DNA of 64,000 nt, from IMG/VR virus record IMGVR_UViG_3300028654_000009; one strand, 5' to 3'. How positions within the stretch are numbered: position 1 is the first letter of the stretch; each line of letters opens with the position of its first letter. Source of the stretch: a virus. Below are positions 1-15,579 of this stretch, piece by piece. The position numbers and the translations under genes were made by a program. A model generated the notes under the pieces. The model was not told the DNA's origin. It saw only the letters and a list, made by a program, of their open reading frames with translations, and did no database searches.

Positions 1-176
1 TGTGCGGTATGGATGCGTCGCAGCACGTCTTGGATGGAGGTGGGGTTGTGGCCGGCATTGCGCGGGTGTGTCATCGCCCAAGGAAACTCCAAAAGAAGCT
101 GGGCGACGATCTGCTCGGGCTCCCCCCGGAAGGTTTCGACTTCCTGAGACCAAATATTTGTAATCTTGACCGTCAT
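1..176 (-). CDS. Partial hypothetical protein (MTVKITNIWSQEVETFRGEPEQ...), runs off the window edge
   Basis: ATG at 176 overlaps the TAA of the 1344-aa gene (TAATG coupling). The frame is open to position 1. Confidence 0.7.
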   Translation of the reverse strand, partial: MTVKITNIWSQEVETFRGEPEQIVAQLLLEFPWAMTHPRNAGHNPTSIQDVLRRIHTA

Positions 177-3100
177 TACTCTAACGCTCCCAGACTTTCG
201 TACTCGGGCTGCTCGCCCTGCTCGCCCAGCGGGTCATACCATTTTTTATCTTTTGGTTTTCGGTACTGGTCAATATCTTGGAATCGCTTTTCTGCGTCCG
301 CCATGACTTGCTTTTTGTTGAACCGATTTGTCTCAAACCCGGGGATGACCTCCTGGGCCCCCTCATTATAGTGCTCCGGAATCATATTAGCATGCTCACG
401 GAACTTGTCAAGCATTGCTCCCTTGTTTTTATCGAACCAATCCCAGGTCCCCTTCCATGCTTCCGGATTTTCTCCAGGCAATCCGCCCATAACCAAGGCG
501 GCATTGTGAGTCAACAACCTAGAGTGATCCATAACGGGCCTATGTCCGCCATCGAACAGTCCCCCGTGGTCAATAGCCAACGGCAGACCGTTAGGCTGGA
601 TCATCAGATTGTTGCTGTGGCGATCTGAGTTGCCCGTTAGATAGTCCATAATGGCAATCCGGCGCATGGCTTCACGTGCCTCCGGCCGATCGGCTACCCG
701 GCCGGGCTCATAACCCGACCCCACATCACTGAAAGCTTGATGTAGCGACTTTACCCCAGGCTCCATATGTACGACCAAAGCGGGATTATGGAGCCTCTCT
801 TGAATATTGCCCTTCCCTCCCGGAATATTGAGCTGGGTGGCATGAACCTTTTGGTGAAGGTGCCCGATCCCGCCGGCATGGTACATGGCCTGATTGGTTA
901 GCTCATTCCAGGCGGACAGGGGGGTTTGCTGGTTGCTGGCCGGCTTGACCATGTAGCGCTTGCCTCCGTGTTGATAAACGGCCTTGGGTTCGATATCGCC
1001 CTTACCGTCAGGCCCTCTCCCTTCCCACACCATGGTGGGCTCGTGCGTGTTGTTACTGTCGTTCAGGTTCTTCTCAAACGTGTTGACGTCATTCTGGTGG
1101 GCAGCCGGATGGGCCTTCATCAGGCTGTTGTGAATCATCTTGGCTCCCAAGGTGGCATCGAAGCCCTGATGACCAAACACGCCCATCAGCTGGTCCTTCC
1201 CGCCCGCAAGGGCTTTGGACATCATTCCGTCGTCCCCAAGCAAAGGCTCCAGAGCGGCCTTCCATTTGGGGTCCCGTCCACGCCGATGCTCTTCCACTCG
1301 CTTGTTGAGCCAGTTGATCCGTTTTTGGAAGCCAGCACGAAGGTTGTACTTCGCGCGCGGGTCGGTCACGTTCTCCAGGCGCTTCTCGAACGCTTCTTGG
1401 ATAGGCAGCTTGTTTTCGTCGTACCAGGGCAGTACGTGGCGCGCGTCCCAAGAGTTCAAGCCCGGAATCTGATAGTCCCTGTCTTGGGGGAACGAACCTG
1501 GCCTGTTGTGGCCTGCGGCATAAGAAAATGCGCTGCCGTGATCAATCGCCAAAAGGGTCTTATCGGGCCTTACAAGGAGGTTTTCACTGTGTCTGTCTTG
1601 ATTGTCGATCAGGAAATCCATCAGCTGAATTTTGCGGATGTCCGCCTGGTTCGTAGGCAGGTGGTCCCTTTTGAATGAGGTGTTCCCAATATCCTTAGCC
1701 GGCTCCGCTCGGATTACCTGCGCTGGTACCATCCAATCGCCATACCCATGAGGGGCCGTGAAGGTTTCCTGGTGAAGCCTGCCGATACCCGCAGCGTGGT
1801 ACATAGCCTGGTTGGTGTTTTCCGCCCAGCCCGGCATGAACCCGTGTTTGCTGTAGGGCTTGACAATGAACTTCTGAGCCTTTGCGTAGCCCTTGACCGG
1901 CAGCTTATAGATCATCTTGGGATCGCCGCCCCTTGAAAGCTTATCTATTGTCTTGTCGGCATGGTCATAGATGCCCGAAGACCTCTCCGGCTTGACATGC
2001 GCAGCCATCCCTTGCCGATACGCCTCGACCGAATAATGGTGATGGGGCATAGGTTCTTCTGCTGCTGGATTGGAGAGATGGGGAGCCTTGACCTCTTCTG
2101 CGAAGTCGTTGGCGTTATCAATCACGGCCTTCGCCATACGCAGTTTAGGATACTTCGAATGCCCCCTGACTTTCTCGATGTGAGCCGCTGCCACCTGAAT
2201 CGGAAGCGAAGGATCGTCCTGGGTGGCCTCTATCATGTGGTGGAGGTGCTCATCTGTCAGGCGAGGGTCCGCCATCAAGTCTTCATGACGGTGAAACACA
2301 GGGTTTCCCTCGTGGTCGCGAGTGGAGTGTGCCAACACCCTCAATGCCAGGTTAGAAAGCGGGTGATAGAACGCGGTTTTGTAAACGTTGTGGTCGGGGT
2401 CGAGGATCGCGTTGGCTACGTCAGTTGGATCGGTCGAGTCCATCTTGAGAGCCAGCGAGCGTTCAATGGGGTCCGGGTGCTCAAGCAGGTGTGCAGCTTC
2501 AGAGGGCTCGTGTTTCTTGACATAGTCCTTGAGGTCTTTCTTCCCCTTCCAGCTGAACGCGGGTGTCTTGACCCGGTCGTTGATTCTTCCGTCTAGGGTG
2601 GCTTCGTCTTCTGCAAAAGCTTTTTCGTGTTCTTCGGGCGTAGCTAGTTGAGACTTATGCGGTCCCACAATAGTCTCCCAATGTGGGCTCTGATAGCCAG
2701 GCCCAGCAGGTTTGGTGGAATGTGAAAAATCGTTCTCTTTGGCCCATTGTGCGTTGTCTTCGGCGCGTGGGTGGACGGCGCCCCACATCGGCAACATTGC
2801 GTGGATATCATTCTGGTGAATCCAGGCTGAAGTGATAGGCCCCTTGTACTCTCGCTTGAAATTATGGAGGATGCTGTACAGCTCTCCCGGAGGGGCGCCC
2901 ACAATAGGCGTCCAGGAGGTTTTTCTGTCATGCGACACGTGCGCAGGGCCGACGGCGGATTGAGCTTCGGCAGGAGACATCGCCCGGTGCATAAGGAATG
3001 ACCTGGTGCCGTCCGGGTGAACCTTGACTTGGGTTTTCCCAGAAAGCTTGTGGAGGCCCCTGACGCGCGCGGGGCCCTCCATTCTGGGGATATTCTCCCT

Positions 3101-4210
3101 GGTTGGGTCTTCCCTGAAACGCCTTTGATAATCCGGGTCAGAAGCGACTTGCCACCTTGCTACGGCCTGCTCGCCTTGGGGAGAAAGGTCTTGAAAGGGA
3201 TCGTAGCTGGGGAGGGCTTTGTTTAGGCCAGCGCCGCTATGGGCGATCGCGTAGGGGCTGTCTCTCGGCAACCTCTCCAAATGGGCTCCCCCATTAGGGA
3301 CCACGGCCGACACGGACCCTTCGTCTTCCGCTACATTCCGATAATAATAACCGCGCTTGGCGGCCCCTCTTTTTATGGCGCCCGCCATATAACCGTTGGC
3401 CCTAAAGTCATCGTGGGCCGACATGGGAGTGTTCGACATAGGGCCCACGATCCTGACAGGGAAGATATCTGGCTTGTGGTTTGGCGATATAGATGTCCCG
3501 TCTCCAAAGGTGGGCATCGCGGTAGCGTAATGATCTTCTGCCATAGGCCCGCTATTGTATCCGGTCCTCTGGACGCCCCTAGCTTGCAAGGTCTTGTGGC
3601 CGGCGAGCAAGGTCTTCCCATATTCTCTTGTGCCGTCCCAGCTGCCCTCTGCCGGAACACCGATTCTTGCATGCAAAGCCTGCTCTGCAGCCTTCCGGGT
3701 CCCGATATGCAGCCCCACTTTGCCGCCAACTAGCTCACCGCTCGGACTCCCATGCCACCACACCTTTTCCCTGTGGCCGTCGTTAGTGGCTTTGGCCAGG
3801 CCTTCGCCCTCTTCAACGCTGAACAACTGGCGCAGGAGGTTAGCCTCACCAGGAGGCCCTTCGAGGTTTTCCCACACGTCCCTGGGAATGCCTTTGAGCA
3901 CCGGAATCCACTTCCAGGCGCCATCCTTGACTTCCTCGTCAGGGTCATGGGTCGAATGGGCGTCACCTGAGCAGAGAGCCGAGAACAGGTGGATCATTGC
4001 GCCGGACGGATTAACTTCAGATTTGATATGCGTCAGTGACTTAGGGCGCAGGCCGGTCTCCTCGTACAGCTCCCTGGCGGCAGCTACCGTTTTGTCTTCG
4101 CCCTCGTTGAGACCCCCACCTGGCATCGTCCAGGTGCCACGGTCGGAGCGCTTCCCGAGCAAAATCTCGCCTTTCCCGTTGGTGACGAGTATGAGAGAAA
4201 CTTGCTTCAT
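176..4210 (-). CDS. Polyvalent multi-enzyme protein: NUDIX hydrolase, two ADP-ribosyltransferase-like domains, helical repeats and two PI3/PI4-kinase (HipA)-like domains; probable virion cargo
   Basis: NUDIX box GGGLNEGEDKTVAAARELYEETGL. WHGS...GLHIGT...YYRNVAEDEGSVS. MHRAMS...TSWT...WETIV. Two kinase signatures: DFLIDNQDRHSENLL...IDHG and DYLTGNSDRHSNNLM...IDHG. Coupled to head genes. Confidence 0.75.
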   Translation of the reverse strand: MKQVSLILVTNGKGEILLGKRSDRGTWTMPGGGLNEGEDKTVAAARELYEETGLRPKSLTHIKSEVNPSGAMIHLFSALCSGDAHSTHDPDEEVKDGAWKWIPVLKGIPRDVWENLEGPPGEANLLRQLFSVEEGEGLAKATNDGHREKVWWHGSPSGELVGGKVGLHIGTRKAAEQALHARIGVPAEGSWDGTREYGKTLLAGHKTLQARGVQRTGYNSGPMAEDHYATAMPTFGDGTSISPNHKPDIFPVRIVGPMSNTPMSAHDDFRANGYMAGAIKRGAAKRGYYYRNVAEDEGSVSAVVPNGGAHLERLPRDSPYAIAHSGAGLNKALPSYDPFQDLSPQGEQAVARWQVASDPDYQRRFREDPTRENIPRMEGPARVRGLHKLSGKTQVKVHPDGTRSFLMHRAMSPAEAQSAVGPAHVSHDRKTSWTPIVGAPPGELYSILHNFKREYKGPITSAWIHQNDIHAMLPMWGAVHPRAEDNAQWAKENDFSHSTKPAGPGYQSPHWETIVGPHKSQLATPEEHEKAFAEDEATLDGRINDRVKTPAFSWKGKKDLKDYVKKHEPSEAAHLLEHPDPIERSLALKMDSTDPTDVANAILDPDHNVYKTAFYHPLSNLALRVLAHSTRDHEGNPVFHRHEDLMADPRLTDEHLHHMIEATQDDPSLPIQVAAAHIEKVRGHSKYPKLRMAKAVIDNANDFAEEVKAPHLSNPAAEEPMPHHHYSVEAYRQGMAAHVKPERSSGIYDHADKTIDKLSRGGDPKMIYKLPVKGYAKAQKFIVKPYSKHGFMPGWAENTNQAMYHAAGIGRLHQETFTAPHGYGDWMVPAQVIRAEPAKDIGNTSFKRDHLPTNQADIRKIQLMDFLIDNQDRHSENLLVRPDKTLLAIDHGSAFSYAAGHNRPGSFPQDRDYQIPGLNSWDARHVLPWYDENKLPIQEAFEKRLENVTDPRAKYNLRAGFQKRINWLNKRVEEHRRGRDPKWKAALEPLLGDDGMMSKALAGGKDQLMGVFGHQGFDATLGAKMIHNSLMKAHPAAHQNDVNTFEKNLNDSNNTHEPTMVWEGRGPDGKGDIEPKAVYQHGGKRYMVKPASNQQTPLSAWNELTNQAMYHAGGIGHLHQKVHATQLNIPGGKGNIQERLHNPALVVHMEPGVKSLHQAFSDVGSGYEPGRVADRPEAREAMRRIAIMDYLTGNSDRHSNNLMIQPNGLPLAIDHGGLFDGGHRPVMDHSRLLTHNAALVMGGLPGENPEAWKGTWDWFDKNKGAMLDKFREHANMIPEHYNEGAQEVIPGFETNRFNKKQVMADAEKRFQDIDQYRKPKDKKWYDPLGEQGEQPEYESLGALE

Positions 4211-5055
4211 TACAAACTTCCGGTGAACATCCCCAAGCCCATCTGGCGCTGGAGTTTCTTGACCAAGAACTTCCGCTTATCCTGAAGGATCTTCAACCGA
4301 TCGTTGAACAAATCAGGACCGGGAGTAGACTGACTCTGGGAAAGCCCATCGATGCTCAAGCTCGCCGAGGTGGACCTCGAATACGTGGTCGCGAGCATGG
4401 CTAGGACTTCCATAGCAGTGATGACGCCGATGAGCTGGTTCACCACGCGAGGAACCATCCCGTCCTTGAAGCCGGTCGTATAGATAACCTCGAAGAACGA
4501 AGCAATCCAGGGGCGATGTCCGAAGATGGCCATAAACTGCGCTCCGTAGGGCCCTGTTCCAATCTGAGCATAGTTGTTCGTCTGCAGAGCGATCGTCAAA
4601 GGGATGAGATTGAGCTGTCCCTGGTGGAGGTAGCCCACGTCGATCCAGTCCAAGGGAATTGAGTAGATCGTCTGCTCGTTCGATGCAGTGATGGTGACGG
4701 CCTGCAGAGACTGAATAGGCCGATGTCTCAATTGCATGAACCCGAGAGACTCATACTCGGGCTTGTCGAAAGCGAGCTTCTCTTTGAACTGCTTAGGGAA
4801 GATATCGAACCCGCCGTCGATCTCGGCCAGAGCTACAGCCTCAATGATATACTCCTTGAGTTCTTCCGGGCCTATGTACATGGGCTTACCAGTACGCGGA
4901 TCTTTGACTGCTGAGATAAGGGGAATGCCCCACAGGTGAAGGCGGATAACCTTCTCAGGGGTGATCAGCGGCTCGTGCTGGAGCCATACGCCCTCAATTT
5001 TGTTGATGTCGAAAATTTCACCGACACCGTCTTTGCTAGTCGTGTAATCGGCCAT
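4210..5055 (-). CDS. Head completion/neck protein
   Basis: Downstream of the capsid gene. YTTGF and SLSIDGLSQS segments resemble Herelleviridae-like head-tail adaptors. Confidence 0.6.
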   Translation of the reverse strand: MADYTTSKDGVGEIFDINKIEGVWLQHEPLITPEKVIRLHLWGIPLISAVKDPRTGKPMYIGPEELKEYIIEAVALAEIDGGFDIFPKQFKEKLAFDKPEYESLGFMQLRHRPIQSLQAVTITASNEQTIYSIPLDWIDVGYLHQGQLNLIPLTIALQTNNYAQIGTGPYGAQFMAIFGHRPWIASFFEVIYTTGFKDGMVPRVVNQLIGVITAMEVLAMLATTYSRSTSASLSIDGLSQSQSTPGPDLFNDRLKILQDKRKFLVKKLQRQMGLGMFTGSL

Positions 5056-5128
5056 TAAAGTCGCGCTCTTTTCTTGAGATTATCGGCAGCCCACAAGGGC
5101 TGCATGTTGGTGTAGTGGGAGGCCTTCA

Positions 5129-5539
5129 TTAGCAGTCGCTCCCGTCAGTAGCAGCCAAGATAGCAGCCTGAAGCACCGCGATTTTCTGATTGGCAGACTC
5201 GGTAAGAGTAATCCTGATCGACACCGTCCCTCGGATGGGGTCAGTGGCCAAGAGAGAAACCTTCCAAATCGAGGGGTCTTGAGCAAACGGCTGAACGGCT
5301 GCTCGGTTGAACTTTTTATTGCTATCAATGTTCTGAAACTGGATCAGCATAGTCGCCCCTACGACCGGCATGTACCGGAGACCGGCAGGCTCCCAGCCCT
5401 TCGTCAAAGGGAGCTGATCCTTGTCAATCAGCTGGATGTAAACGTCAAAGGGGGTGCCCTCGAATACCTCCACCTGGGTGATGAATTCGAAGTGATTGAT
5501 ATCAGAAACGTTGCCCAGAAGGCGCGCGCCAAAGTTCAT
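5129..5539 (-). CDS. Hypothetical virion protein (beta-rich)
   Basis: 136-aa ORF in the structural module, preceded by AATCT-N6-ATG. Confidence 0.55.
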   Translation of the reverse strand: MNFGARLLGNVSDINHFEFITQVEVFEGTPFDVYIQLIDKDQLPLTKGWEPAGLRYMPVVGATMLIQFQNIDSNKKFNRAAVQPFAQDPSIWKVSLLATDPIRGTVSIRITLTESANQKIAVLQAAILAATDGSDC

Positions 5540-5545
5540 GACCTT

Positions 5546-5561: not shown

Positions 5562-5567
5562 TGATTG

Positions 5568-5987
5568 ATGCGTTATGTCTTACCTTTGCTGGCGATCCTG
5601 CTGACGGCCTGCCCTCCCAAGGCACTTCCACAAGACCCCCAAATGGTCCAGGCGGTCCAGATTGCGTGGAGCTATTACAAGCTCCCAGGGAAGCCCCCTA
5701 CGTACGTCCTGATGCAGGGCGCGGCCCTTACGTGCAGGAATAGCCCGGGCACAGAAATGGTTGGCTGGGGATGTAAGGGCGTGGTTCACCCAGGCTGCAC
5801 TTGCGTCGCCGGCACGGAAGACGGGGCGAGCTTTGCTATTGCTCGGGTGGATAATCAGCCGTGGCACACGACTGCAATTTGTCACGAAGCCCAGCACGCT
5901 GCTGTGGGCAACTACAACCATACGCAACCAGCCTGGGACAACCTGTTGCTCCCCTGCCAGGCCGCTCAGACTGCCGCCGGGCTCTAG
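5568..5987 (+). CDS. Lipoprotein with HExxH zincin-like motif
   Basis: Signal and lipobox MRYVLPLLAILLTA-C. CHEAQH motif. Several Cys residues. Confidence 0.65.
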   Translation: MRYVLPLLAILLTACPPKALPQDPQMVQAVQIAWSYYKLPGKPPTYVLMQGAALTCRNSPGTEMVGWGCKGVVHPGCTCVAGTEDGASFAIARVDNQPWHTTAICHEAQHAAVGNYNHTQPAWDNLLLPCQAAQTAAGL

Positions 5988-6529
5988 TCCTCTTCAGAAC
6001 TCTTTCGGCTCTCCCAGAATTCTTCGAGTTCTCTGTCCCTTTCGGCCAACGTAGTTCCCAGTAGGTCATCGAGGGCGCCGTCATCATAGGTGCCCGTTGC
6101 AAGTGCCTTCCCGAAGAATCCACTAACCTCATTTACGAACGCTGTTGGAGACAGCAGCTCCCTTGGGGTGGGCATGGTCCCGGGGCTGACGTGGTGGAGG
6201 CGTTCAAACTTCTCTCCTAGATCAAACCACCACTCAATCTCCTTGCCTAGGTCGATAGCAAGGATGATTTCGAGTTCCATCCCCTCACTTATGGCCCCTC
6301 CGACGATATAAACAGCAACACGGTCAGAGGTTGCCAAATACGCCTGGGCGGCGATGATTCCTAGCTGTCTGTCCACTTCTTTGGTGTCGTCTAGAAATTG
6401 CGTGTAATACCCGTGTGGAGCAAAGGGCGCTCTCCCCATGCTCAGCTGGTGAGTTGCATACCGATGGCTCTTAAGGATGTTCCCCGAAACTTCGCCCCGC
6501 AGCCTGCTGCAAACGAATACCGTTTCCAT
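5984..6529 (-). CDS. Nucleoside 2-deoxyribosyltransferase-like (DUF4406-like) protein
   Basis: VFVCS.LRG....N, PFAPH.YYTQFLDD...DR.LG and ISEGM.LEI motifs. Confidence 0.6.
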   Translation of the reverse strand: METVFVCSRLRGEVSGNILKSHRYATHQLSMGRAPFAPHGYYTQFLDDTKEVDRQLGIIAAQAYLATSDRVAVYIVGGAISEGMELEIILAIDLGKEIEWWFDLGEKFERLHHVSPGTMPTPRELLSPTAFVNEVSGFFGKALATGTYDDGALDDLLGTTLAERDRELEEFWESRKSSEED

Positions 6530-6828: not shown

Positions 6829-6867
6829 CTTCTAAGATTAGCATACAAATCAATGAATTACAAACGC

Positions 6868-6931: not shown

Positions 6932-7579
6932 TTAGTATTGCTTCTCAAAATCAGAGAACACGTAACGAGGTGCGTTGGGGTAATTGTTGTTCTTCAGGAA
7001 GCCAATTTCCACAAACGAAGTGGGATTGTCGTTGCGACAGTCTCCGTAAGTTGGCTCCGGGAAACTGGGAAACAAATAGAAAGCATCGACGGACAGCGTG
7101 TAATATGTGTTAGGGTTGATTACATACACCGACCCGTCCGTGAAGTTGCAGGAACCAGAGCTAGCATACCATACAATCTGGAGCCCGGCAATCATAGGCA
7201 GACTGTAGTTGAACGCTCGCGGATCATAATTGCCCCACGCTCGCTCCATGTAAAAGCCACAGCTAGGGGTGTCAAGATTGTCCGAAGTGCGCTCATACAG
7301 GTACTTGTTGACACTCGAATCCCACCTAAGTTTGCTGTGTGTGGGACCGGTCAAAACGGGGGGAGAGGAAGTCCCTTCCCCGGTCCAGCTCGACTGGGTT
7401 CCGTCAGACTTCCAGTGATCCACGATACGGCAATAGCTGCTTTCCTTCTCCTGGGCAACTCCGACCTTGTCGGCAGCCAGCTGCGCGCTGAAATCCTTTG
7501 TGGTGGGAGCCTTGACGGGCTCGCCTCCACATGCTACCAATACCAAACCAACGATCATTGAGAGTGCTACTTTCTTCAT
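6932..7579 (-). CDS. Lipoprotein (moron-like cassette)
   Basis: MKKVALSMIVGLVLVA-CGG lipobox. AAGGA SD. Has its own promoter and terminator. Confidence 0.75.
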   Translation of the reverse strand: MKKVALSMIVGLVLVACGGEPVKAPTTKDFSAQLAADKVGVAQEKESSYCRIVDHWKSDGTQSSWTGEGTSSPPVLTGPTHSKLRWDSSVNKYLYERTSDNLDTPSCGFYMERAWGNYDPRAFNYSLPMIAGLQIVWYASSGSCNFTDGSVYVINPNTYYTLSVDAFYLFPSFPEPTYGDCRNDNPTSFVEIGFLKNNNYPNAPRYVFSDFEKQY

Positions 7580-7738: not shown

Positions 7739-9130
7739 TTACAGCTGTCCGCGCAAGTTGTCGATCAGCACGTTCTTGCGGGGCTCCACAACCGCCAAAG
7801 TCAAGAACCGCAGATGCGCCTCGGGGATGCTGAGGTCCGAGACCGCCAGCTTCACTCGGCTGTAAGGGGCAAGCTCCTTCAGCTCCATGGTGTCGCCCTG
7901 GATGAGATAGCCCGTCACGAAGCCCGGGAGCTTATTCCCGAGGTCGAGGAAGGTGGTGTTACCCGACACCGCCGAGATAACCCGACCAACGAACTTGGCC
8001 GAGGAGGCCGCGCCGCCAGCGTTCGTGCGGTACACATTGTACCCGCGAACCGTACCAGAACCCGGAGGGGTGATGGTCAGGGTGATCTTGTCGTTCAGGT
8101 TGACCGAGGCCGACGCGATAGAGGCCGAAGCCGGGGACTCGCCGTTCTCGTTGAACGAGGTGACGTAGAAGGTGTAGACGCCAGCCGCGAGAGCCCCACC
8201 GGCGCTGTTGGCAATGCCGAGGGTAGGAGCGGTAGGAGAGTTGGCGCGGGTGCGAGCCGGCTTGCTCTTACCACGAAGGAACTGGCTGGCCTCGATGTTG
8301 ACGGTACCACCAGAAACCCACTGCTTGCGGAGGTCGCCACCGGTCGAGTCCTGAGGGGACCCCGCGAGAATTACTCGCTCCTTGCCGATAACCAGCTTGT
8401 TGTAAGCCGAGAGGACAATCGGGTCAACCAGAAGGCGGTTGGCAGTGCCGAAGTTGAGAGCGCTACGAACCGCCGCGTCCTCAACCTTGCCCTGGTCCAG
8501 GGTGCCGCCGCCCGAGAGAACCACAGAGTCGTCCGAGCCGAACTCTGAGAACATAAGGTCTCGGCTGTTGACCTGCATGTCGCTCTGACGAACCTGGAGA
8601 CCGAGCCCGTGAATGTTCGGGAGGGCCGGGACGGCGAAGGGATTGCCGTCGAACACGCCCGCGTTCGAGAAGTCGTCGATACCACGGAAGCTGTCGAACT
8701 CGATGTCGCCAGCGATCTTCTTGGCAGCGTCAGCAGCGGCGCGCTCGTCGCTCTTCTTGCCGTCAACAGTCGCCACCATCGTCGAAGCGATGGTCACCCG
8801 ACGAACGTGGGAGTAGAATGCCATTGGCACCGTAACCCGCACGAAGTCCGAGGTCTCTTCCTGTCCGACCTGGCCTTCGAGCTGGGCAGACCCGCCGAAG
8901 ATACCGTAGCTGAGCTGACGGTCGAACTGGTAGAGGGTGGCCTTGCAGGACGAGGTCCCCACGATCTTCTGGAGCTTGATGTGGCTCTCATCGAAAGTGA
9001 CGTTGTTCATGACCGGGCTGCAGTCCTCGATTTGAAGGGCAGCACCCTGGGTCAGCGTACTGGGGGCTGCGTCATAGTTGCCAGCCTCCAACGCCTTCTT
9101 AAGTTCAGTAACGGCATCCATTGCGTTCAT
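7739..9130 (-). CDS. Major capsid protein (SPO1/Herelleviridae-like)
   Basis: 463 aa. N-terminal KALEAG...P...GAALQIE motif. C-terminal LAVVEPRKNVLIDN. Strong SD, downstream terminator, follows the scaffold gene. Confidence 0.9.
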   Translation of the reverse strand: MNAMDAVTELKKALEAGNYDAAPSTLTQGAALQIEDCSPVMNNVTFDESHIKLQKIVGTSSCKATLYQFDRQLSYGIFGGSAQLEGQVGQEETSDFVRVTVPMAFYSHVRRVTIASTMVATVDGKKSDERAAADAAKKIAGDIEFDSFRGIDDFSNAGVFDGNPFAVPALPNIHGLGLQVRQSDMQVNSRDLMFSEFGSDDSVVLSGGGTLDQGKVEDAAVRSALNFGTANRLLVDPIVLSAYNKLVIGKERVILAGSPQDSTGGDLRKQWVSGGTVNIEASQFLRGKSKPARTRANSPTAPTLGIANSAGGALAAGVYTFYVTSFNENGESPASASIASASVNLNDKITLTITPPGSGTVRGYNVYRTNAGGAASSAKFVGRVISAVSGNTTFLDLGNKLPGFVTGYLIQGDTMELKELAPYSRVKLAVSDLSIPEAHLRFLTLAVVEPRKNVLIDNLRGQL

Positions 9131-9172
9131 TTGTGTGTTCTCTCCTGATGGTTTTTGTTGTTGGGGCAGTTG

Positions 9173-10129
9173 TTAGGCGAGGAACTTGGCGATATCGTCA
9201 ATTCCTGCGGACCCAACAACAAACTTGTTGATGAGGTCTCGGTCAGATTTGGCAAGCTTCGAAGAGGAGGTTGCCTTGTTGAGCTTCTCAATCACTTGCG
9301 ACTTCGTAAGCGACCGGGGATCAACAGGGGCCTTCTCGGCCGGCTTATCGGTGGTACCAGGCTTGCTGATGTAGGAAATCCCAGCGACAGACTTCCGCAT
9401 GACCTGGCGCTTGGTCACCATATCGGTGATTGCCTTGATGGTCTCGGCCATGGCCACTTCCTGCTTGGCAAGCTGGTCGTCCTTCTCTTTGATCGACTTG
9501 CGCAGCTTGCTGATTTCAGACATCTGAGACTTGGCCATTCCGCCGTTCCCGTCATTGGGAGTCCCAGTGCTGATTTCGCCCTTGCCGATTCCCGGCGGAG
9601 GACCGCCAGCTCCCGGCGGAGGACCGCCGGCCGAAGCCTCGGGGCCCGGGGGAGGGCCGGCCGATGCGTCAGGGCCCGGAGGGCCTGCAGAGGCCTCAGG
9701 ACCGCCCGCCTCGGGGCCGCCACCCTGCGATTCCATCGCCATGAGGGCGGCGTGGGCTGCCATCAGGTGCATCTTCAGCTCTTCAGGCGGGAGCTTCATG
9801 TACTCGGCCTGGAGTGCTTCCGGAGTGGCGCCGGCATCTGTCGCCGGGTCCTGGCCGCCGTCTGGACCGCCGTCCATCGGGGGCGCTGAGCCCTCGGCAG
9901 AAGCGTCGGCAGAAGCGTCGGGAGCGCCAGAATCCTCGGGACCGGCGCTCGACTGCTCGCCCGGAGGTCCGTCAGTCGCGCTTCCGTCCGGAGTGGTCTC
10001 GGCAGTGGTCTCTTCGCCAGGGTCGGCCTTGGAAAGGGTCACTTCCTCCGTATCGGACTTGAGCATGACGGCGACATCGTTAGTCACCTGCTCAAGCAAC
10101 TTGTTGATTTGAGATTTCGAGAGCTTCAT
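9173..10129 (-). CDS. Capsid scaffold/assembly protein
   Basis: Acidic, P/G-rich with coiled coil, directly upstream of MCP. Many [LM]xK[SA] motifs. Confidence 0.75.
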   Translation of the reverse strand: MKLSKSQINKLLEQVTNDVAVMLKSDTEEVTLSKADPGEETTAETTPDGSATDGPPGEQSSAGPEDSGAPDASADASAEGSAPPMDGGPDGGQDPATDAGATPEALQAEYMKLPPEELKMHLMAAHAALMAMESQGGGPEAGGPEASAGPPGPDASAGPPPGPEASAGGPPPGAGGPPPGIGKGEISTGTPNDGNGGMAKSQMSEISKLRKSIKEKDDQLAKQEVAMAETIKAITDMVTKRQVMRKSVAGISYISKPGTTDKPAEKAPVDPRSLTKSQVIEKLNKATSSSKLAKSDRDLINKFVVGSAGIDDIAKFLA

Positions 10130-10162
10130 TAGGTTGTCCTTCCTTGAGGGTTGGGACCCTAA

Positions 10163-10633
10163 TTAGGTGGTCGAGAGGGTGTTCCAGATCGGAGCCCAGG
10201 TCGACTTCAGGTTACCTGCGATCATTGCGGTCGTCGAAGGCACGGTACCGTTGGCAGTCTGGTAGGTATTGATATAAGCGCCAGTGCGGCCCGCGTCGGC
10301 ATAGAGCAGAGCGAGGTCGCCGAGGACATCGATATCTGCGCCAGCGCCCGAGGAGATATTCGACTCGGTGCAGACGTTGATGATGGTCGGGCAGTAGACC
10401 TGCGCGGCGTTGCCGAAGATGTCGGTGCTCACCGGCGCACTGGCCGGCGTGGTCTTCACAACAATGACCTTCTTACCGGCGGCCGGCGAAGAGTCAGAGC
10501 TGAGAACGGTGTAAGGATTCAAGTCGGTGTCGACGAAATCGTTCGAGACCGGATAGTTGGTCGCCAGACGCAGCTTGAGGTTTTCAACCAGCTGCCGGTG
10601 AAGCGTCGCAACCTTGTAGTTCGTAGTGGCCAT
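10163..10633 (-). CDS. Putative head structural/decoration protein
   Basis: 156 aa, T/S/A-rich. AAGGAG SD. First gene of the scaffold-MCP unit, with AATCT at 10695-10699 upstream. Confidence 0.55.
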   Translation of the reverse strand: MATTNYKVATLHRQLVENLKLRLATNYPVSNDFVDTDLNPYTVLSSDSSPAAGKKVIVVKTTPASAPVSTDIFGNAAQVYCPTIINVCTESNISSGAGADIDVLGDLALLYADAGRTGAYINTYQTANGTVPSTTAMIAGNLKSTWAPIWNTLSTT

Positions 10634-10704
10634 TTAGGGAATCTCCTTGAAAGTTTGAAGTGAGCCCCTCTAGGGGCGTTTCGGATACAAACTTAGATTC
10701 CTAC

Positions 10705-10732
10705 TTGACACTGGCTACGAATAATGTATAAT
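10705..10732 (+). promoter_or_regulatory. Consensus sigma70 promoter of the endonuclease cassette
   Basis: TTGACA-N16-TATAAT. Confidence 0.8.
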
Positions 10733-10740
10733 TAATGGTT

Positions 10741-11085
10741 ATGTTTGAAGACAAGACGTATGAGCCGGTCACCTTTGAAACCCAACTGGAGTGCGCAGGT
10801 TGCCGCCTGCTCAAACACCACACTTTGTTCCATCAATACAGGCGGGAACGACAAAGAGTTTTTGCTAGTCGATGCAAGGCTTGCCGAAGGGAAGACCGCA
10901 TGACCAAGGTCTACCCGGAGGTCTGTGCCTGTTGCCTTCTCCATCGCCGCCTGGATAACAACCAACAGTGCAGAACCTGCAACTCTGAAGCTGGCCTGCG
11001 CGAATGCCGGGCCTGCAACAGGTTACTGCCCCTGTGGGCGTCGTTCTATGGCCGGAGCCGTAGGTGTAAGGAGTGTCGAAAATGA
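10741..11085 (+). CDS. Cys-rich zinc-finger protein
   Basis: Six CxxC pairs. Likely leaderless start at 10741. Confidence 0.6.
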   Translation: MFEDKTYEPVTFETQLECAGCRLLKHHTLFHQYRRERQRVFASRCKACRREDRMTKVYPEVCACCLLHRRLDNNQQCRTCNSEAGLRECRACNRLLPLWASFYGRSRRCKECRK

Positions 11086-11948
11086 GCGGCCGGCCTCCAG
11101 CGCTCGATCCGAAACATCTGGGCACCGTAATGGAGCTTTACGGCTCCGGGCTGGGAACTACCAAAATTGGAAAGCAACTAGGGGTAAGCTCCAGGGCGGT
11201 TCGCTACTTGATGAAACAGAGCGGCATCCCCCTCAGGAGGGATGATTTCGCCAAACTAGTTATCAATGACGGCTTCTTCGACGAAATTGACACGCCAGAG
11301 AAGGCATATTGGCTGGGCATATTGATTACCGATGGGAATGTGTCTGGGACCCGAATAACGCTGAACCTGAAAGATCGGGAGCATCTGGTAAAGTTCGCTG
11401 AAGCTCTAGGAGGCGGCCAGACACTATCTATCAAAGCAAAACACAAACAAATGGAAGGTCGGGATGTGGTTTGCTTCAACCTCCAGTTTAGAAGCAAACA
11501 CATGGCCGGAGCGCTGTCAAAATACGGGGTCGTCCCTCGCAAAAGTGCAACATCATACCCATGGAACGGTCCGGCTGAATTGATGCCACACTTTTGGAGA
11601 GGGTGTGTGGACGGCGATGGGTGGATTACTGAGATAAAGCCAGGTAGGTTTGCTATTGGTCTGTGTGGAACAAAAGCGATGACACAAGCGTTCTCAGACT
11701 TTTCTTATTCTGTCACTGGGGTTGCTCACAAAATCAAAGCACAGGGCAACATTTTTGTTTGCAGCGTCGGCAGCATAGAGGTGGTCCGAAAGTTGGCAAT
11801 TTGCCTGTATGGAAACCTAGATAAGGCTAGTAGCCTTGACAGAAAGCTGGATAAAGCTATTTTGGCGATGGGGGCTTTGGTCCAGCAACCCCCGCCTGGG
11901 CGCCCGAAGAAGGCAAAGCCCCAGCTGGTGGGGCCCCAGAATCAATAG
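11082..11948 (+). mobile_element. Free-standing LAGLIDADG homing endonuclease with N-terminal HTH
   Basis: AYWLGILITDGNV and HFWRGCVDGDGWI motifs. Antisense to the structural operon. Confidence 0.85.
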
Positions 11949-14900
11949 GCATAGGTCCTTCATGTCCTGGTACCAAACTGTGGACAAAATTCGGAGTTTT
12001 TTGAGGCGAGTACATTGCTTTCCGTTTTGTCCCCAAAACCTTGTTGAACAGGCTCGGTGCTGCAAACTTTTGCTCCTTTGCCATACCCAAAGCTTTGTCT
12101 GCTGTTTCGAAGTTGTGGCCGAGACCAAACGACATTGACAGCTTGTGCTGGCCATTGACCGGAGGAAGGGCTTCCAACCCGGCCTTTGCGTGTCGGATAA
12201 ATTGCGCTGCGTGCTCGTGCGTAGGTGCCCAGAACGACATTTCGTCTCCTCCGCTGCGCCATGCCTTCCCCGTCCCCACCTTAGCCGCTGCATCACGAAA
12301 CGCTCCGCCCATAGCCTTGATAGCACTGTCGCCAGCATCGTGACCGTGGATGTCGTTCACCTGCTTGAAGCTGTTCCCGTCAGCGGACACCCAAACACCA
12401 GGCCGGTTCTCCTCGCGAAATTCCGACGCAGCCCTCTTGTTACCGATGCCCGGTATCATCGGGTCGCCGTAAAATCCATGAACCAGGGCTCTGGTAATCG
12501 GGTGGTCGTGCCCATGAATCTGACGTGCCTGAGCGATAGCCGTACGGTGATCGGGCACCGTAGGCTCGGGGGGCAGGTGTAGGGTCTCCTCGTCCTTCCT
12601 CATTTCGGAAGACATTTTCTTGTATCGCACAGTACCAATTCCGGTCTTGGCATTGTGTAAGATTAGCTGAAGTTCGCCCTCGGTCAAGGCGTGGCCGTCC
12701 ATCGCTGCTCCATGCGGCCCAAACTCAATCGTGTGTGGCTTGACCATGCCCGGTCGGTGGAACTCGAACACCGAATTAGGCTTCGGCATCGGCATTTTCA
12801 TGACCGTCAGCTCTGGAACCGGATTGGGCTTCGCGACCTCGGTGGAGGGGGTCGTTTCGGTGACCGAGAAATTGGGACTCCACTTGAGGCCATGAAGCCC
12901 AGCGATAGCCGAAGCGTCCATCTTGCCCTCGGGAACCATTGCATGCAGAAGGCCGTGGTAGTCTTCCAGGTGGTGGACGACATCACGACTGACCGAGAAC
13001 CGGCCCGCCGGGTGAATTTTGTCGCCATGCTTGATGCCTACCGAATAGATAGTCGGCATATCAATTTTGGGCTCAATGGCGTCCGCAATATCTTTCCTCA
13101 GGTCGATGAGAGCTGCTTCCATCTCCCTGGCCTTGGCCAAGAACTCCATGTTCTGGCCATTCCTCTCTCGATGCTCGGCAGCTTCGAGGAGCTTGGGGAC
13201 CAAGTGGTGATAATACAAGAACTGAGCGGGGATCTCTCCGTACTTTTCCACATAGCTTTGGTGAACCAATGCCGTGCGCAAAGACGTTCCGGAATCGGGC
13301 TCGTCACTCTTCTGGACCGGATCAATCCAAGGCTTGATAGAGTCCCAAAATGGTTCATGGTGGGTCCCCGACTGCTTGCCCTTGTTGGTCATACCCACAA
13401 ACTGCTCGTGCGGACGAATCGTAATCCAGTGTCGCCAGAAAGCAGGGAACAAGGCGTCCTTGGGGTCCTCGAACGTTGAACCCCACTTTGGGTGATTAAG
13501 AGTGTATTTTACGGCCGGGTGGTTCTTGGCGTACCAGTCGTTATACGGCCTCATTATGGTATCGATGTTGTTGGGGTTCCACAGCATGTTCTTCAGGTAA
13601 GTGAGGGTCCGCTTATCTTTCATTACGTGCAGACCGAACATGTTGCGGATAAAGTGAGTATCAGGTACAACCGAGTCGCCACCACCCAACATCCCATAGG
13701 TGTAAAGACCAGTTTTGACCGCAAGACCCGGGACAGCGGTAAACGGAGACTCCCCTGGGTCAGGTTTACCCAGCAGTTTAGCTCGCTCACGCTTGGCCTC
13801 CCACAGTTGACCCTTGTGTTTGTTTCCCATTAGCTCGGAAACGGCGTCGAGGGCGTGATGACGGTGTCGGGATACCAGGTCGACGAGACCGTGATGCAAA
13901 GAATGATAACGAGATAAGTTTTTGAATGACCCTTCCATCAGGGGAGTCGTGCCGGGCAGCTCGCCAGCATACCGACCAGCGGCCGTTGGGTCGCCTGGGA
14001 ACTCTCCCCATTCATCGTGGCGAATACCGATACGGTTGCCCACATAATAGGCCGGGTTTGTAGCGAACGCTTCTTTACCGGTCTCGGGCAGCGTATTCGG
14101 AGAGTCCAATTCTCTGAATTTTGGCTCAATCGCCGAGAAGCCCGGATTTCTCGGATCAAGACCGGTGGCGTGCATGGCGTCCACAAGTCTAGCGTACTGT
14201 AGCTCCTGCACCGGGACCGGCCGATTCGGAGACAGCTGGGCAAACATCACGGCATGCATGATGACCTCTGGCGGTAACTTACCGGCCTTGATCAACTTAT
14301 GAACCTTGCTCCAGTTGGTCATAGCAGTGTCCATGGCCTTTTCGACTTCTGGAGACTTCAACAATTTCTCATAATTCGCAGCCGATTCTGGGCCATCATC
14401 AGAGGGGAGATAGGCTTTGAAACTTCCCATGGGGGTCCGCAAAACGCCTTTTTTGGGATCAAAAGAGGGGTGTTTGACAGATGGATTGGGGCGTATTTTG
14501 GTTCCTCGGAAGGTGGCAGCCGTAAATTTTGGGGCCTTAGCTTCTTCCTGTTCACTGTCGTCGAAATCCTCAAGGATCGGCTTGTCGGGTTTCGGGGCCT
14601 CCGGGGGCGTCGCAGGCGCGTCGCCCTCTCGCTTAGCCAGAGACTTCTTTACGGTGTACGCCTCCGCGATGTCGGCAAAGTGATTGAGAAAATCGTCCGA
14701 CACTTCCGGGAGCTTCGCCTTGGCAAACCCCATGAACTCGCTCCGCGTAAATTTTCGATTACCGAAATCTCGCAAAACAGCCTTGCAGGTATTCCTGATT
14801 CGGTCGTCTACGTGTTCCTTCTGGAGAGCGGCGCCTCCAGTGAGAGAAGATGGAGCCCCTCCACCCATGCCGGCCTCTATCGCCTTGCGCACAGTCGAAA

Positions 14901-15579
14901 GAACCATCGCAGACCGAAGCAAATTGAGAGAAGCCTCGGCCTTGGAATCAATGATTTCGACCTCGGTCTCGTACCCTGATAGTTGGGCGTACTCGGGGTC
15001 GATTATGGACGTGTTTTCAGACTTCTTGAAGCCTTCGGGGGCGTTGGGGTCGGATAGCAGAATGGTGTCGCAAGCTTTGAGACAGGGTTTGATAGTAATC
15101 GCGACTCTGCGGAAGATGCATTGCTTGATAGTGTTACCCTCTTTCTTGAGGGTAGAGCCTTCGATGCTAAACCGACACAGGATCTTCTCGTCATTGGCCA
15201 CAGCGTCTCGAATTTGGGCGGCAACGGCCATGGCCTCGGCGTGTCCCGCTCCGTCATACAGACGGACTACCCCAAAAAGGTAGGGCACTCTGACCTGGTC
15301 CCAGAATTTCTCTTGCTCTGTGGTCTCGCAATCTCCCTTCTTGAAGATTTTTTTAACATAGATGACACGGCCAATGGTTTCCTTACCAAAGCCAGTTTCG
15401 GCGTCAACGTGTTCCCAGTTAACGGTAGCTGTCCCCTCTTCTGCACTAGAAATATCAATACCGTCTAGCTCGACAGTCTCACCGCTGCTATCAATAAGTT
15501 CAGCACTGAAGATGCCTCCCAGCAACATCCCAGTTTTGGATTCTTTCGGCTGGTCTCTTGGATTGCTCATGATATCCAA
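11857..15579 (-). CDS. Prohead protease polyprotein fused to an HhH-GPD glycosylase-like domain and a GGDEF diguanylate cyclase
   Basis: Protease motifs DSSGE, NWEH, FSIEGS and VAITIKPC. HhH VPGLAVKT...VVPDTHFIR. GGDEF motif ADGNSFKQVNDIHGHDAGD...RSGGDEM. The start may be the ATG at 15570. Confidence 0.85.
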   Translation of the reverse strand: MDIMSNPRDQPKESKTGMLLGGIFSAELIDSSGETVELDGIDISSAEEGTATVNWEHVDAETGFGKETIGRVIYVKKIFKKGDCETTEQEKFWDQVRVPYLFGVVRLYDGAGHAEAMAVAAQIRDAVANDEKILCRFSIEGSTLKKEGNTIKQCIFRRVAITIKPCLKACDTILLSDPNAPEGFKKSENTSIIDPEYAQLSGYETEVEIIDSKAEASLNLLRSAMVLSTVRKAIEAGMGGGAPSSLTGGAALQKEHVDDRIRNTCKAVLRDFGNRKFTRSEFMGFAKAKLPEVSDDFLNHFADIAEAYTVKKSLAKREGDAPATPPEAPKPDKPILEDFDDSEQEEAKAPKFTAATFRGTKIRPNPSVKHPSFDPKKGVLRTPMGSFKAYLPSDDGPESAANYEKLLKSPEVEKAMDTAMTNWSKVHKLIKAGKLPPEVIMHAVMFAQLSPNRPVPVQELQYARLVDAMHATGLDPRNPGFSAIEPKFRELDSPNTLPETGKEAFATNPAYYVGNRIGIRHDEWGEFPGDPTAAGRYAGELPGTTPLMEGSFKNLSRYHSLHHGLVDLVSRHRHHALDAVSELMGNKHKGQLWEAKRERAKLLGKPDPGESPFTAVPGLAVKTGLYTYGMLGGGDSVVPDTHFIRNMFGLHVMKDKRTLTYLKNMLWNPNNIDTIMRPYNDWYAKNHPAVKYTLNHPKWGSTFEDPKDALFPAFWRHWITIRPHEQFVGMTNKGKQSGTHHEPFWDSIKPWIDPVQKSDEPDSGTSLRTALVHQSYVEKYGEIPAQFLYYHHLVPKLLEAAEHRERNGQNMEFLAKAREMEAALIDLRKDIADAIEPKIDMPTIYSVGIKHGDKIHPAGRFSVSRDVVHHLEDYHGLLHAMVPEGKMDASAIAGLHGLKWSPNFSVTETTPSTEVAKPNPVPELTVMKMPMPKPNSVFEFHRPGMVKPHTIEFGPHGAAMDGHALTEGELQLILHNAKTGIGTVRYKKMSSEMRKDEETLHLPPEPTVPDHRTAIAQARQIHGHDHPITRALVHGFYGDPMIPGIGNKRAASEFREENRPGVWVSADGNSFKQVNDIHGHDAGDSAIKAMGGAFRDAAAKVGTGKAWRSGGDEMSFWAPTHEHAAQFIRHAKAGLEALPPVNGQHKLSMSFGLGHNFETADKALGMAKEQKFAAPSLFNKVLGTKRKAMYSPQKTPNFVHSLVPGHEGPMPIDSGAPPAGALPSSGAQAGVAGPKPPSPK

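Follow-up and report, generated by a model that had tools for sequence, protein, structure and literature searches.

The stretch of DNA analysed here (IMG/VR virus record IMGVR_UViG_3300028654_000009, 64,000 nucleotides, referred to below as the window) carries the head genes of an uncultured myophage of the Mx1 type, among them two genes for large multi-enzyme proteins. The first encodes a 1240-residue fusion (P0001) in which a domain with the fold of a capsid maturation protease is followed by several enzyme domains; the second encodes a 1344-residue protein (P0002) with a Nudix hydrolase, a conserved domain called module B, modules C and D, and two kinase-like domains. We propose, with a probability of roughly 0.6, that the phage loads such enzymes into its head, cuts them apart, and delivers them through the head, by means of the protease fusion and of cleavage sites located between the modules. 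In silico, the evidence consists of the fold of the protease, the conservation of sites of the type [L/M/V]-x-K-[A/S], the placement of these sites at module junctions, and homology to an experimentally mapped cleavage site in Listeria phage A511.

The window belongs to a 132-kb IMG/VR viral contig with an estimated completeness of 80%. Its closest cultured relative is the Myxococcus phage Mx1, with which it shares a syntenic head module (58% identity for the major capsid protein, or MCP, and 37% for the protease fusion); by inference from Mx1, the host would be a Gram-negative member of the Myxococcota. The MCP also has distant homology to the MCPs of Herelleviridae. On the minus strand, the genes follow one another in the order large terminase, 325-residue protein, portal, MuF-like protein, 1240-residue fusion, 156-residue protein, scaffold, MCP, several small genes, 281-residue protein, and 1344-residue protein. 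The genes for the two multi-enzyme proteins are thus on the same strand and in the same block as those for the terminase, portal, MCP, and neck proteins, and the order is syntenic in Mx1.

A Probable Lysine-Type Processing Site Shared by Head Proteins

A sequence-only reading of the window had noticed that a short motif, [LMV]-x-K-[AS], recurs among the head proteins. Every motif named in that reading was found at its place, and additional instances had been overlooked. The MCP has one copy (LKKA, residues 10-13) and the scaffold nine (LSKS, LSKA, MAKS, LRKS, MRKS, LTKS, LNKA, LAKS, and the previously unlisted MLKS). In the portal, LAKS 27 and LTKS 43 are joined by the unlisted VIKA 127 and VGKA 509, and in the 1344-residue protein LAKA 138, LNKA 329, MAKA 692, and MSKA 997 are joined by LMKA 1030. 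The protease fusion contains VRKA 230, VKKS 310, VQKS 755, and LAKA 814, the variants LRKD 827 and MRKD 993, and three unlisted motifs, LLKS 406, VEKA 412, and LIKA 429.

The earlier reading had suggested a comparison of head with replication proteins as a check, and a comparison of the head proteins with the rest of the genome gave an enrichment in the head set. The six head proteins contain 27 motifs vs 7.3 expected from their composition (Poisson 1.5e-8), with the scaffold (9 observed, 0.8 expected), the protease fusion (7 and 2.3), the 1344-residue protein (5 and 1.9), and the portal (4 and 1.1) all contributing; the window's MuF-like protein is not enriched. The remaining 124 open reading frames (ORFs) of the 132-kb genome contain 61 motifs vs 47.8 expected, and by the same composition-based count no enrichment was found in four large tail proteins.

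The motif was defined on the window's own proteins, and the test was therefore repeated on relatives, whose loci were collected by an MCP-based search (4 loci) and a protease-profile search (57 loci). In these approximately 57 loci, the ratio of observed to expected motifs (O/E) was 6.2 in scaffolds (129 motifs vs 20.8 expected, n = 23), 3.35 in portals (n = 42), 2.2 in protease fusions, and 1.44 in MCPs, which have one site each. Outside the presumed substrates it was close to one, with 0.96 in MuF proteins (n = 42) and 1.13 in other ORFs (n = 781). In 111 homologous cargo regions, the O/E was 2.4 with lysine at P1, the residue before the presumed cut. A panel of control motifs, with other P1 residues or with reversed or shifted order, gave values of 0.9-1.25 in the same regions for Arg, Asp, Gln, Asn, Thr, Ser, Ala, or Gly at P1, 1.8 for Glu, and 0.65 for the reversed motif.

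The position of the cut can be read from Listeria phage A511. In the GenBank entry of its capsid protein Cps, the mat_peptide feature, from which the cut position was taken, starts at Ser24, after Lys23 (...EDALK↓SFTTGYGITPDTQTDAGALRRE, the arrow marking the cut). The window MCP (TELKK↓ALEAGNYDAAPSTLTQGAALQIED) aligns in register with this site, as does the MCP of phage SP-10, and the cut is therefore placed after the lysine. The earlier statement that A511 Cps is cleaved at a Lys-Ser bond thus stands, and the motif is very likely the site of the prohead protease, cut after Lys.

Conservation in the ordinary head proteins agrees with this assignment. The sequence L-x-K-A lies approximately 10-13 residues from the N-terminus in 28/28 MCPs of relatives, Mx1 included; it is followed by a conserved segment (LEAG..AAPSTL.QGAALQ.ED) and preceded by variable residues. 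Portals begin with a variable stretch of 40-90 residues that ends in [ST]-L-x-K-[SA] in 35/42 cases, directly before the conserved core. A second recurrent motif column is found at portal residue 659 in 33/42 relatives, so that the portal may also be trimmed at its C-terminus; at P1′, the residue after the cut, the window phage has His in this column. Just before it, at residues ~570-640 (17482-17900, minus strand), the portal contains a long low-complexity stretch rich in Gln, Gly, and Pro. In an alignment of 22 scaffolds with a mean identity of only 27%, just two residues are invariant, K34 and K294, both with Leu at P3, and K200 and K246 are nearly so. Cleavage at K294 would remove the last 24 residues of the scaffold, a conserved segment that, by analogy with other scaffolds, may be its coat-binding end.

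The Protease and Its Copy of the Capsid Arm

An AlphaFold2 model of residues 1-330 of the fusion, built on 30 homologues, was used to assign the N-terminal domain. With the protease domain as query, Foldseek ranks 1-39 were all herpesvirus assemblins (best E-value 3.8e-3, probability 1.00; the E-values are weak and the list is uniform), and T4 gp21 (5jbl) was found at rank 41. Residues D30, H57, S138, E140, and G141 are invariant among the 120 listed homologues of the fusion, and by analogy H57 and S138 would form a Ser-His active site. Searches for a curated family were negative: Pfam gave no match at E ≤1 for residues 1-240, including the S78 model, PHROGs gave none for the protease N-terminus, and a 30-sequence profile gave none against PDB sequences. 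This reflects the divergence of the domain and does not disprove its assignment. By its predicted fold, the N-terminal domain is a capsid maturation protease of the assemblin/HK97/T4 gp21 type. Its gene lies in the order portal, MuF, protease fusion, scaffold, MCP, and the MCP, portal, and scaffold share conserved sites; in Mx1, the orthologue bears the annotation of a putative prohead protease, and the fusion protease is apparently the only prohead protease of the phage.

Behind the protease domain, the site VRK↓A contains a lysine, K232, that is invariant in 120/120 listed homologues, with L, M, V, or I at P3 and A, T, or S at P1′. The site aligns with K23↓S24 of A511 Cps. K232 is followed directly by a copy of the N-terminal arm of the phage's own MCP, AIEAGMGGGAPSSLTGGAALQKEH in the fusion vs ALEAGNYDAAPSTLTQGAALQIED in the MCP. 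This copy is conserved across the protease-fusion family, and in the window genome the arm pattern was found in the MCP and the protease fusion only.

The short proteases of A511 (gp84; ETFMK↓SWTTGHGTTPDTQVNAGALRRES) and SP-10, which have no cargo, contain such an internal copy as well, and the arm copy is therefore considered ancestral. In A511 gp84 (DQ003638.2, locus L066, 2585-3379) and SP-10 gp139 (locus L065, 2518-3261), each phage's own MCP cleavage site and N-arm are copied internally and then followed by a short helical tail. The arm copy may be the route by which proteases of the Herelleviridae type are recruited into proheads and self-released.

In the window fusion, the arm copy is followed by a bundle of three confidently predicted helices and then by an Ala/Pro-rich disordered linker (residues 320-346), in which the predicted local distance difference test score (pLDDT) falls below 50. 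The bundle may take part in docking; a predicted complex between the C-terminal region of the scaffold and the arm/bundle module scored 0.25, vs a mark of 0.32, a result that speaks neither for nor against binding.

Cargo Domains and Candidate Junction Sites of the Fusion

The fusion has 162 homologues of 682-2170 residues. Among the 120 listed, a GGDEF domain is found in 64, a PI3/4-kinase-like domain in 13, and a ParB-like domain in 2, and no family was recognised in 40. In Mx1, a kinase-like module is found in the fusion, and the beta domain and the cyclase are encoded by two separate genes.

The cargo was modelled with AlphaFold on 50 homologues (residues 225-1240, mean pLDDT 83). Stretches with pLDDT <50 were found at residues 225-257, 320-346, 759-763, 808-813, 836-838, 917-932, 990-1007, and 1220-1240. 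The large middle domain is a probable HhH-GPD-like domain, resembling DNA glycosylases. In VIA-align, the sole non-cyclase match was the Ogg protein of Thermotoga maritima (3n0u; Z 13.4, root-mean-square deviation 3.4, 208/209 residues), a borderline Z for a helical domain that was searched within a model of 1016 residues. In the segment GLAVK622TG...VPD640TH, K622 is kept in ≥90% of the 50 homologues, and neither D640 nor H642 varies. We take this spacing to be equivalent to that of K120 and D138 in endonuclease III (EndoIII), in which the catalytic Asp follows the hairpin Lys by ~18 residues. Pfam gave no HhH-GPD match at E ≤1 for the middle domain, and Foldseek, queried with the 1016-residue cargo model, gave GGDEF matches only. 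The C-terminal domain is more readily assigned: VIA-align Z-scores of 17-18.6 were obtained with many diguanylate cyclases, the best being SiaD (7e6g), and Foldseek agreed. The loop reads GGDEM in the window phage vs GGDEF in the family consensus, and the pattern D-x-N...N-D-x-x-G-H-x-x-G-D is present.

A position matrix, trained only on the scaffold Lys columns and MCP N-termini of relatives and thresholded at the 99th percentile of 1568 control lysines of this genome, was then applied to both multi-enzyme proteins. In the fusion it selected K232, K757, and K995 (3 vs 0.94 expected), all of which abut or lie in linkers with pLDDT <50. Across 53 fusion homologues, the motif recurs in columns 232 (51 sequences), 757/758 (29 of ~49), 816 (33/51), 829 (29/51), and 995 (23/51), and in column 757/758 it does so despite variable flanks. 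Several of these columns coincide with places where relatives' genes begin or end. The fusions of some relatives end at query 803-810, near LAK↓A; separate downstream genes of four relatives start at query 838-840, shortly after LRKD; the separate cyclase gene of Mx1 starts at the position aligned with MRKD, and that of locus L052 at query 976. At the LRKD position, Mx1 has LRK↓A (matrix score 9.2). The cuts predicted for Mx1 itself are at K14↓A15 of the MCP, K57↓S58 of the portal, K39, K196, and K266 of the scaffold, K242↓A243 and K844↓A845 of the fusion (WNM70322), and K35↓A36 of the kinase protein (WNM70334); the Mx1 Nudix protein is WNM70333.

At the 3′ end, the fusion gene is overlapped by 92 nt by an ORF on the opposite strand (11073-11948, plus strand), which encodes a 291-residue LAGLIDADG-like homing endonuclease (motifs ILITDGNV and CVDGDGWI); the equivalent place in Mx1 has no annotated gene.

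The 1344-Residue Nudix/Kinase Protein

In the 1344-residue protein, the matrix selected K331, K694, K999, and K1032 (4 vs 0.86 expected), and K140 scored just under the 99th-percentile cut-off. Comparison with relatives divides the protein into blocks of homology, with edges at residues 136, 140-150, 316-329, 557-564, 689-692, 974, and 1027; therefore, all five of its five strict motifs are at block edges. The Nudix block ends at residue 136 in several relatives, and at the junction with module B the proteins of relatives start at query 128-148 or end at 130-131. Two proteins of relatives (P0123 and P0124) retain LKK↓A where their Nudix domain ends, with a different module next to it. At the junction of modules B and C, a separate 797-residue protein of a relative (P0127) begins at query 325-329 and another protein (P0145) ends at 322. 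P0127 also has LAKA where MAK↓A aligns, in front of the first kinase.

Module B has no Pfam match. It is common to 73 large proteins with ART-PolyVal (PF18760), InPase (PF18823), MuF (PF04233), 2H, and related families, and in four homologues it is fused to the MuF head domain; an Atlas feature search gave a weak ART-PolyVal lead (0.88; 20% of the cluster carried this family). In the nine closest relatives of module B, the motif is present at the start of the module in 9/9 and near its end in 7/9, whereas in distant polyvalent proteins it is at a background level of ~15%. This is as expected if the site grammar belongs to the present protease clade. The link of the 1344-residue protein to the head rests on gene position, the module B-MuF fusions, and the junction motifs.

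A heptapeptide, PEYESLG, occurs near the C-terminus of the protein (window 176-205, residues 1334-1340) and in the 281-residue protein (4741-4761, residues 99-105). It was considered as a loading signal and rejected, being unconserved in relatives and probably due to chance.

The gene after this one is a 499-residue ORF on the minus strand; it ends at position 153 and extends upstream of the window (window 1-153), and it resembles the C-terminal part of a Mx1 "kinase" (WNM70334); its called N-terminus is probably over-extended, and its product may be a further kinase-like effector. Upstream of the window (genome C1:5847-11159, minus strand; L064:848-6160:-) is a third polyvalent protein of 1770 residues, with an N-terminal mCpol domain (PF18182) and several GNAT domains. 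It contains 9 strict motifs vs 2.7 expected, three of which are the LGKA of GNAT motif A and probably not sites.

The sequence-only reading had placed the motifs of the 1344-residue protein at apparent domain boundaries. In both large proteins, a placement at module junctions is supported for the high-scoring sites, which are found at AlphaFold linkers, block edges, and gene boundaries of relatives. The strict motif taken alone shows no significant concentration at linkers in the fusion (3-4/7 copies). The view of the motif as a protease site does not extend to all of the sites that were listed: VKKS 310 is within a confident helix, LRKD and MRKD have Asp at P1′, and these three are probably not used.

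An entirely different origin of the junction motifs can be imagined, in which they are scars of gene fusion or live internal starts, i.e., a former TTG, ATG, or GTG start codon followed by an N-terminal Lys-Ala/Ser, or modules made by separate translation. The bacterial start codons TTG, ATG, and GTG indeed encode L, M, and V, Met is the first residue of three junction sites (MAKA, MSKA, and MRKD), and genes of relatives do begin at aligned positions. However, Leu at P3 is encoded by TTG in 3/16 cases, equal to the 18% background, Val at P3 is encoded by GTG in 1/6, and an upstream Shine-Dalgarno-like sequence is inconsistent. Furthermore, the motif is invariant at the MCP N-terminus and recurs in the portal and at numerous places of the scaffold, where a gene start would have no meaning, and A511 shows proteolysis at the homologous bond. 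Relic start codons were rejected on codon usage and on the MCP, portal, and scaffold sites, and we consider this origin very improbable.

Proposed Pathway and Alternative Explanations

In the proposed pathway, the protease would cut after the lysine of [L/M/V]-x-K↓[A/S]. As in related Herelleviridae, the MCP would lose 12 residues and the portal a variable N-terminal peptide, and the scaffold would be chopped at many sites, including the one that detaches its conserved C-terminal 24 residues. The protease would cut itself at the invariant Lys232. The enzymes appended behind the arm copy and the three-helix bundle, here the HhH-GPD-like domain, a small beta domain, and the GGDEF cyclase, would enter the prohead as part of the protease, because they are fused behind it; they would be released by the cut at Lys232 and probably split further at K757, K816, and perhaps K995. 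The 1344-residue protein, if it is in the prohead, would probably also be cut into single enzymes. The fragments would be too large to leave the shell and would therefore remain with the DNA until they are ejected into the host cell, where the enzymes might act in takeover or anti-defence, as the sequence-only reading had suggested.

Several observations weigh against this pathway. For the 1344-residue protein, the motif enrichment is modest (P ~0.04) and no loading signal was found in the form of an MCP-arm copy, an N-terminal propeptide, or a conserved tail; the Nudix fold begins directly at residue 2, and no site comes before residue 138. The Mx1 orthologue (1479 residues) has one matrix match only, and the separate beta-domain and cyclase genes of Mx1 have no obvious route into the head. 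In the fusion, the strict motifs 406, 412, and 429 are inside a folded domain and VKKS 310 is in a helix, and Asp is at P1′ of two conserved junction positions in the window phage. More generally, L-x-K-A is a helix-friendly pattern, of which GNAT motif A (LGKA) yields false matches, and homologous sequences are non-independent, so that family-wide counts overstate significance. A literature search found no virion proteomics for Mx1, and the words protease, capsid, Nudix, kinase, and cyclase do not appear in the paper on the Mx1 genome.

The most serious rival is that there is ordinary maturation only. The MCP, portal, and scaffold would be processed and the protease cut at K232; the cargo would remain one chain of ~110 kDa, the 1344-residue protein would be a late cytoplasmic protein that never enters the head, and the junction motifs would be by-products of linker composition or of a helix-friendly pattern. 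The lack of a significant linker bias of the strict motif in the fusion (3-4/7), the weak enrichment of the 1344-residue protein and its missing loading signal, the Asp at P1′ of two junctions, and the few high-scoring sites of the Mx1 Nudix protein are all in keeping with this explanation, as is the fact that the virion RNA polymerase (vRNAP) of phage N4 is packaged uncut (PMC5512222). It is less easily reconciled with a matrix that was trained on other proteins and yet selects exactly the linker lysines, with a junction motif that is kept in close relatives with different neighbouring modules and fades outside the clade, or with the lack of enrichment in control motifs and large tail proteins. 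On balance, ordinary maturation alone appears unlikely.

Alternatively, the appended domains could be bulky scaffolding or core material of the prohead that, as with T4 gp22, would be broken down and lost from the head in the course of maturation instead of being delivered. Multiple sites per chain resemble scaffold degradation, and prohead proteases and propeptides usually leave the head (PMC10052503). A disposable core is nevertheless improbable, as catalytic signatures are kept family-wide (the GGDEF loop, the guanine-binding Asn/Asp, the HhH Lys/Asp, the Nudix box, and the kinase DRH/IDHG), the type of cargo varies as effector repertoires do, and the few sites are at junctions, leaving folded domains of 15-60 kDa that are unable to pass the capsid pores.

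Returning to delivery through the head, a broader hypothesis can be put forward tentatively, although we regard it as possible rather than probable: the protease, Lys232, the arm copy, and the bundle might together form a general, evolvable cassette for cargo loading. Loading would occur by mimicry of the N-arm, like the cargo-loading peptides of encapsulins, and would be followed by release at the protease's own site and by injection. Clade-variable, pre-made enzymes (a c-di-GMP synthase, a DNA glycosylase, kinases, Nudix, mCpol, and GNATs) would then act before phage gene expression.

Coordinates and Neighbouring Genes

The coordinates of the features discussed above are collected in Table 1. 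Three small ORFs lie in the same region. Two of them, at 6932-7579 (minus strand) and 5565-5987 (plus strand), are within the head-neck gene block and may be moron or exclusion genes; the signal peptides of their products are of the lipoprotein type (MKKVALSMIVGLVLVACGG and MMRYVLPLLAILLTACPP). The third (5984-6529, minus strand) encodes a 181-residue protein with a match to DUF7768 (PF24963, E-value 8.8e-24).

Table 1. Features of the head module, in window coordinates; ↓ marks the predicted cut.
Feature	Residues	Coordinates	Strand	Basis and remarks
1344-residue polyvalent protein (P0002): Nudix, module B, modules C/D, two PI3/4-kinase-like domains	1-1344	176..4210	-	Pfam NUDIX 7.8e-17, PI3_PI4_kinase 3.6e-15
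MSK↓A and LMK↓A	997-1000; 1030-1033	1112..1222	-	between kinase 1 (end ~974) and kinase 2 (start ~1027); matrix 3.9 and 7.1
MAK↓A, before kinase 1	692-695	2126..2137	-	kinase alignments start at 689-692; matrix 3.9
LNK↓A, junction of modules B and C	329-332	3215..3226	-	matrix 5.3
Module B	~141-322	3245..3790	-	strongly conserved polyvalent-protein domain; best matches 47-68% identical
LAK↓A, Nudix/module B junction	138-141	3788..3799	-	between block edges 136 and 140-150
Nudix hydrolase module	1-136	3803..4210	-	Pfam; intact Nudix box GX5EX7REUXEEXGU read in translation
MCP, 463 residues	1-463	7739..9130	-	PHROG 752 at 1e-45; 58% identity to Mx1 MCP
LKK↓A, MCP	10-13	9092..9103	-	predicted maturation cut, 12-residue propeptide; matrix 10.5
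Scaffolding protein, 318 residues	1-318	9173..10129	-	9 motif copies; role assigned from position and composition
1240-residue protease-cargo fusion (P0001)	1-1240	11857..15579	-	start TTG 15579; alternative ATG 15570
GGDEF nucleotide cyclase domain	~1008-1215	11935..12558	-	Pfam PF00990 5.5e-9, 36.4 bits vs cut-off 23.8
MRKD	993-996	12592..12603	-	variant site in pLDDT <50 linker 990-1007 before GGDEF; matrix 4.5
LRKD	827-830	13090..13101	-	variant of conserved [LI]-[RK]-K-[AST] position; use uncertain (Asp at P1′)
LAK↓A, fusion	814-817	13129..13140	-	candidate junction, after pLDDT <50 loop 808-813; fusions of relatives end at query 803-810
VQK↓S	755-758	13306..13317	-	candidate junction; matrix 5.3; helix end before pLDDT <50 loop 759-763
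Large conserved cargo domain, HhH-GPD DNA-glycosylase-like (probable)	~355-758	13306..14517	-	pLDDT >90
Three-helix bundle	257-319	14623..14811	-	AlphaFold2 helices 257-272, 279-289, 295-319; pLDDT >90
MCP N-arm copy, 24 residues	233-256	14812..14883	-	directly after K232
VRK↓A	230-233	14881..14892	-	predicted self-cleavage site, separating protease and cargo; matrix 7.8; low-pLDDT stretch
Capsid maturation protease domain (by predicted fold)	17-180	15040..15531	-	AlphaFold2 pLDDT >90; Foldseek
MuF/SPP1 gp7-like minor head protein, 259 residues	1-259	15794..16573	-	PHROG head-morphogenesis and minor-head families; no cargo
Portal, 707 residues	1-707	17482..19605	-	Pfam PF04860 and several PHROG portal families
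LTK↓S, portal	43-46	19468..19479	-	predicted removal of variable N-terminal propeptide

Relation to Known Systems

Polyvalent proteins of phages and conjugative elements were described by Iyer, Burroughs, Anand, de Souza, and Aravind in 2017; their packaging and their delivery together with the DNA were predicted, and their domains include those of the GGDEF, Nudix, GNAT, ParB, and ART types (PMC5512222). In these proteins assemblin-like peptidases are rare and, according to that work, always C-terminal, and a processing role has been assigned to them (PMC5512222). The two proteins of the window are similar in that several unrelated enzyme domains are carried on one chain (protease, HhH-GPD-like, and GGDEF in P0001; Nudix, module B, and two kinase-like domains in P0002) and encoded among late virion genes. 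In contrast, the assemblin-like peptidase of the window is N-terminal and is the phage's own prohead protease. Moreover, processing of polyvalent proteins is mostly ascribed to embedded zincin peptidases, whereas the window has a capsid-protease site grammar at its junctions and a copy of the MCP arm, neither of which is described there (PMC5512222).

A second group of related systems is that of T4 gp21 with the internal proteins IPI-III and Alt, phiKZ gp175, and SPN3US gp245. In each, one protease recognises a short P3-x-P1 motif and cuts the MCP, the portal, the scaffold or core, itself, and ejected internal proteins (PMC10052503, PMC7411985), and a similar range of substrates is predicted here. 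T4 Alt is packaged and injected (PMC5512222), and for SPN3US gp245 cleavage at A-x-E is proven in the MCP, the portal, the ejection proteins, and the C-terminal propeptide of gp245 itself (PMC10052503). The window phage differs in the residue at P1, which is Lys here vs Glu in these phages (L/I-x-E, A-x-E). Substrates in T4, phiKZ, and SPN3US lose N-terminal targeting propeptides, whereas the cargo of the window is fused to the protease and its chains are predicted to be cut between domains. A T4-type targeting propeptide was not found in P0002, and P0001 uses covalent fusion instead. Processing of the T4/SPN3US type is proven by mass spectrometry, and that of the window is predicted. The window system may thus work like the capsid-targeted internal proteins of T4, without being a member of that family.

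A further likeness is to the Herelleviridae (A511 Cps/gp84 and SP-10), which have a homologous MCP with a K↓[A/S] site and a homologous protease with an arm copy and a helical tail; the scaffold of SP-10 is rich in [LVI]-x-K-S, as that of the window is in its motif. However, the Herelleviridae proteases are of ~250 residues and have no cargo, and the enzyme extension of ~1000 residues, like the polyvalent proteins that accompany it, is particular to the Mx1-like clade. Effectors fused to MuF/SPP1 gp7 or to portals likewise use an essential protein of the head interior as a carrier of variable enzyme or toxin domains (PMC5512222), but the carrier in the window phage is the protease.

HK97 gp4 belongs to the same protease superfamily as the protease of the fusion. 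HK97 cuts its capsid protein gp5 after Lys103, before Ser104, and the C-terminal part of gp4 targets the protease to the prohead. HK97 has neither a separate scaffold nor an enzyme cargo.

What is already known in kind, therefore, is polyvalent proteins with assemblin-like peptidases (PMC5512222) and ejection proteins processed by a prohead protease (PMC10052503). What is new is the protease as an N-terminal carrier of clade-variable enzymes, the arm copy after an invariant cut, and a Lys-type site grammar at the junctions of several polyvalent proteins of one genome. A literature search found no description of a prohead protease fused to a diguanylate cyclase.

Implications

If the proposed delivery is real, it would provide a readable rule, for a phage clade with at least 162 protease fusions in public data, of which virion proteins are processed and where. 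It would also name the enzymes that reach the host before phage genes are expressed, a c-di-GMP synthase and a DNA-glycosylase-like enzyme among them. To our knowledge, neither of these is known as a capsid-delivered protein. In addition, it would link polyvalent proteins, which have so far been purely computational, with prohead-protease processing of the T4/phiKZ type, through a new carrier, the protease itself. The cultured relative Mx1, which grows on Myxococcus xanthus, makes these predictions directly testable. Finally, the arm copy, which the proteases of Herelleviridae also have, hints at how such proteases may be recruited into proheads, and would be of interest for capsid assembly in general and for the engineered delivery of proteins by phage heads.

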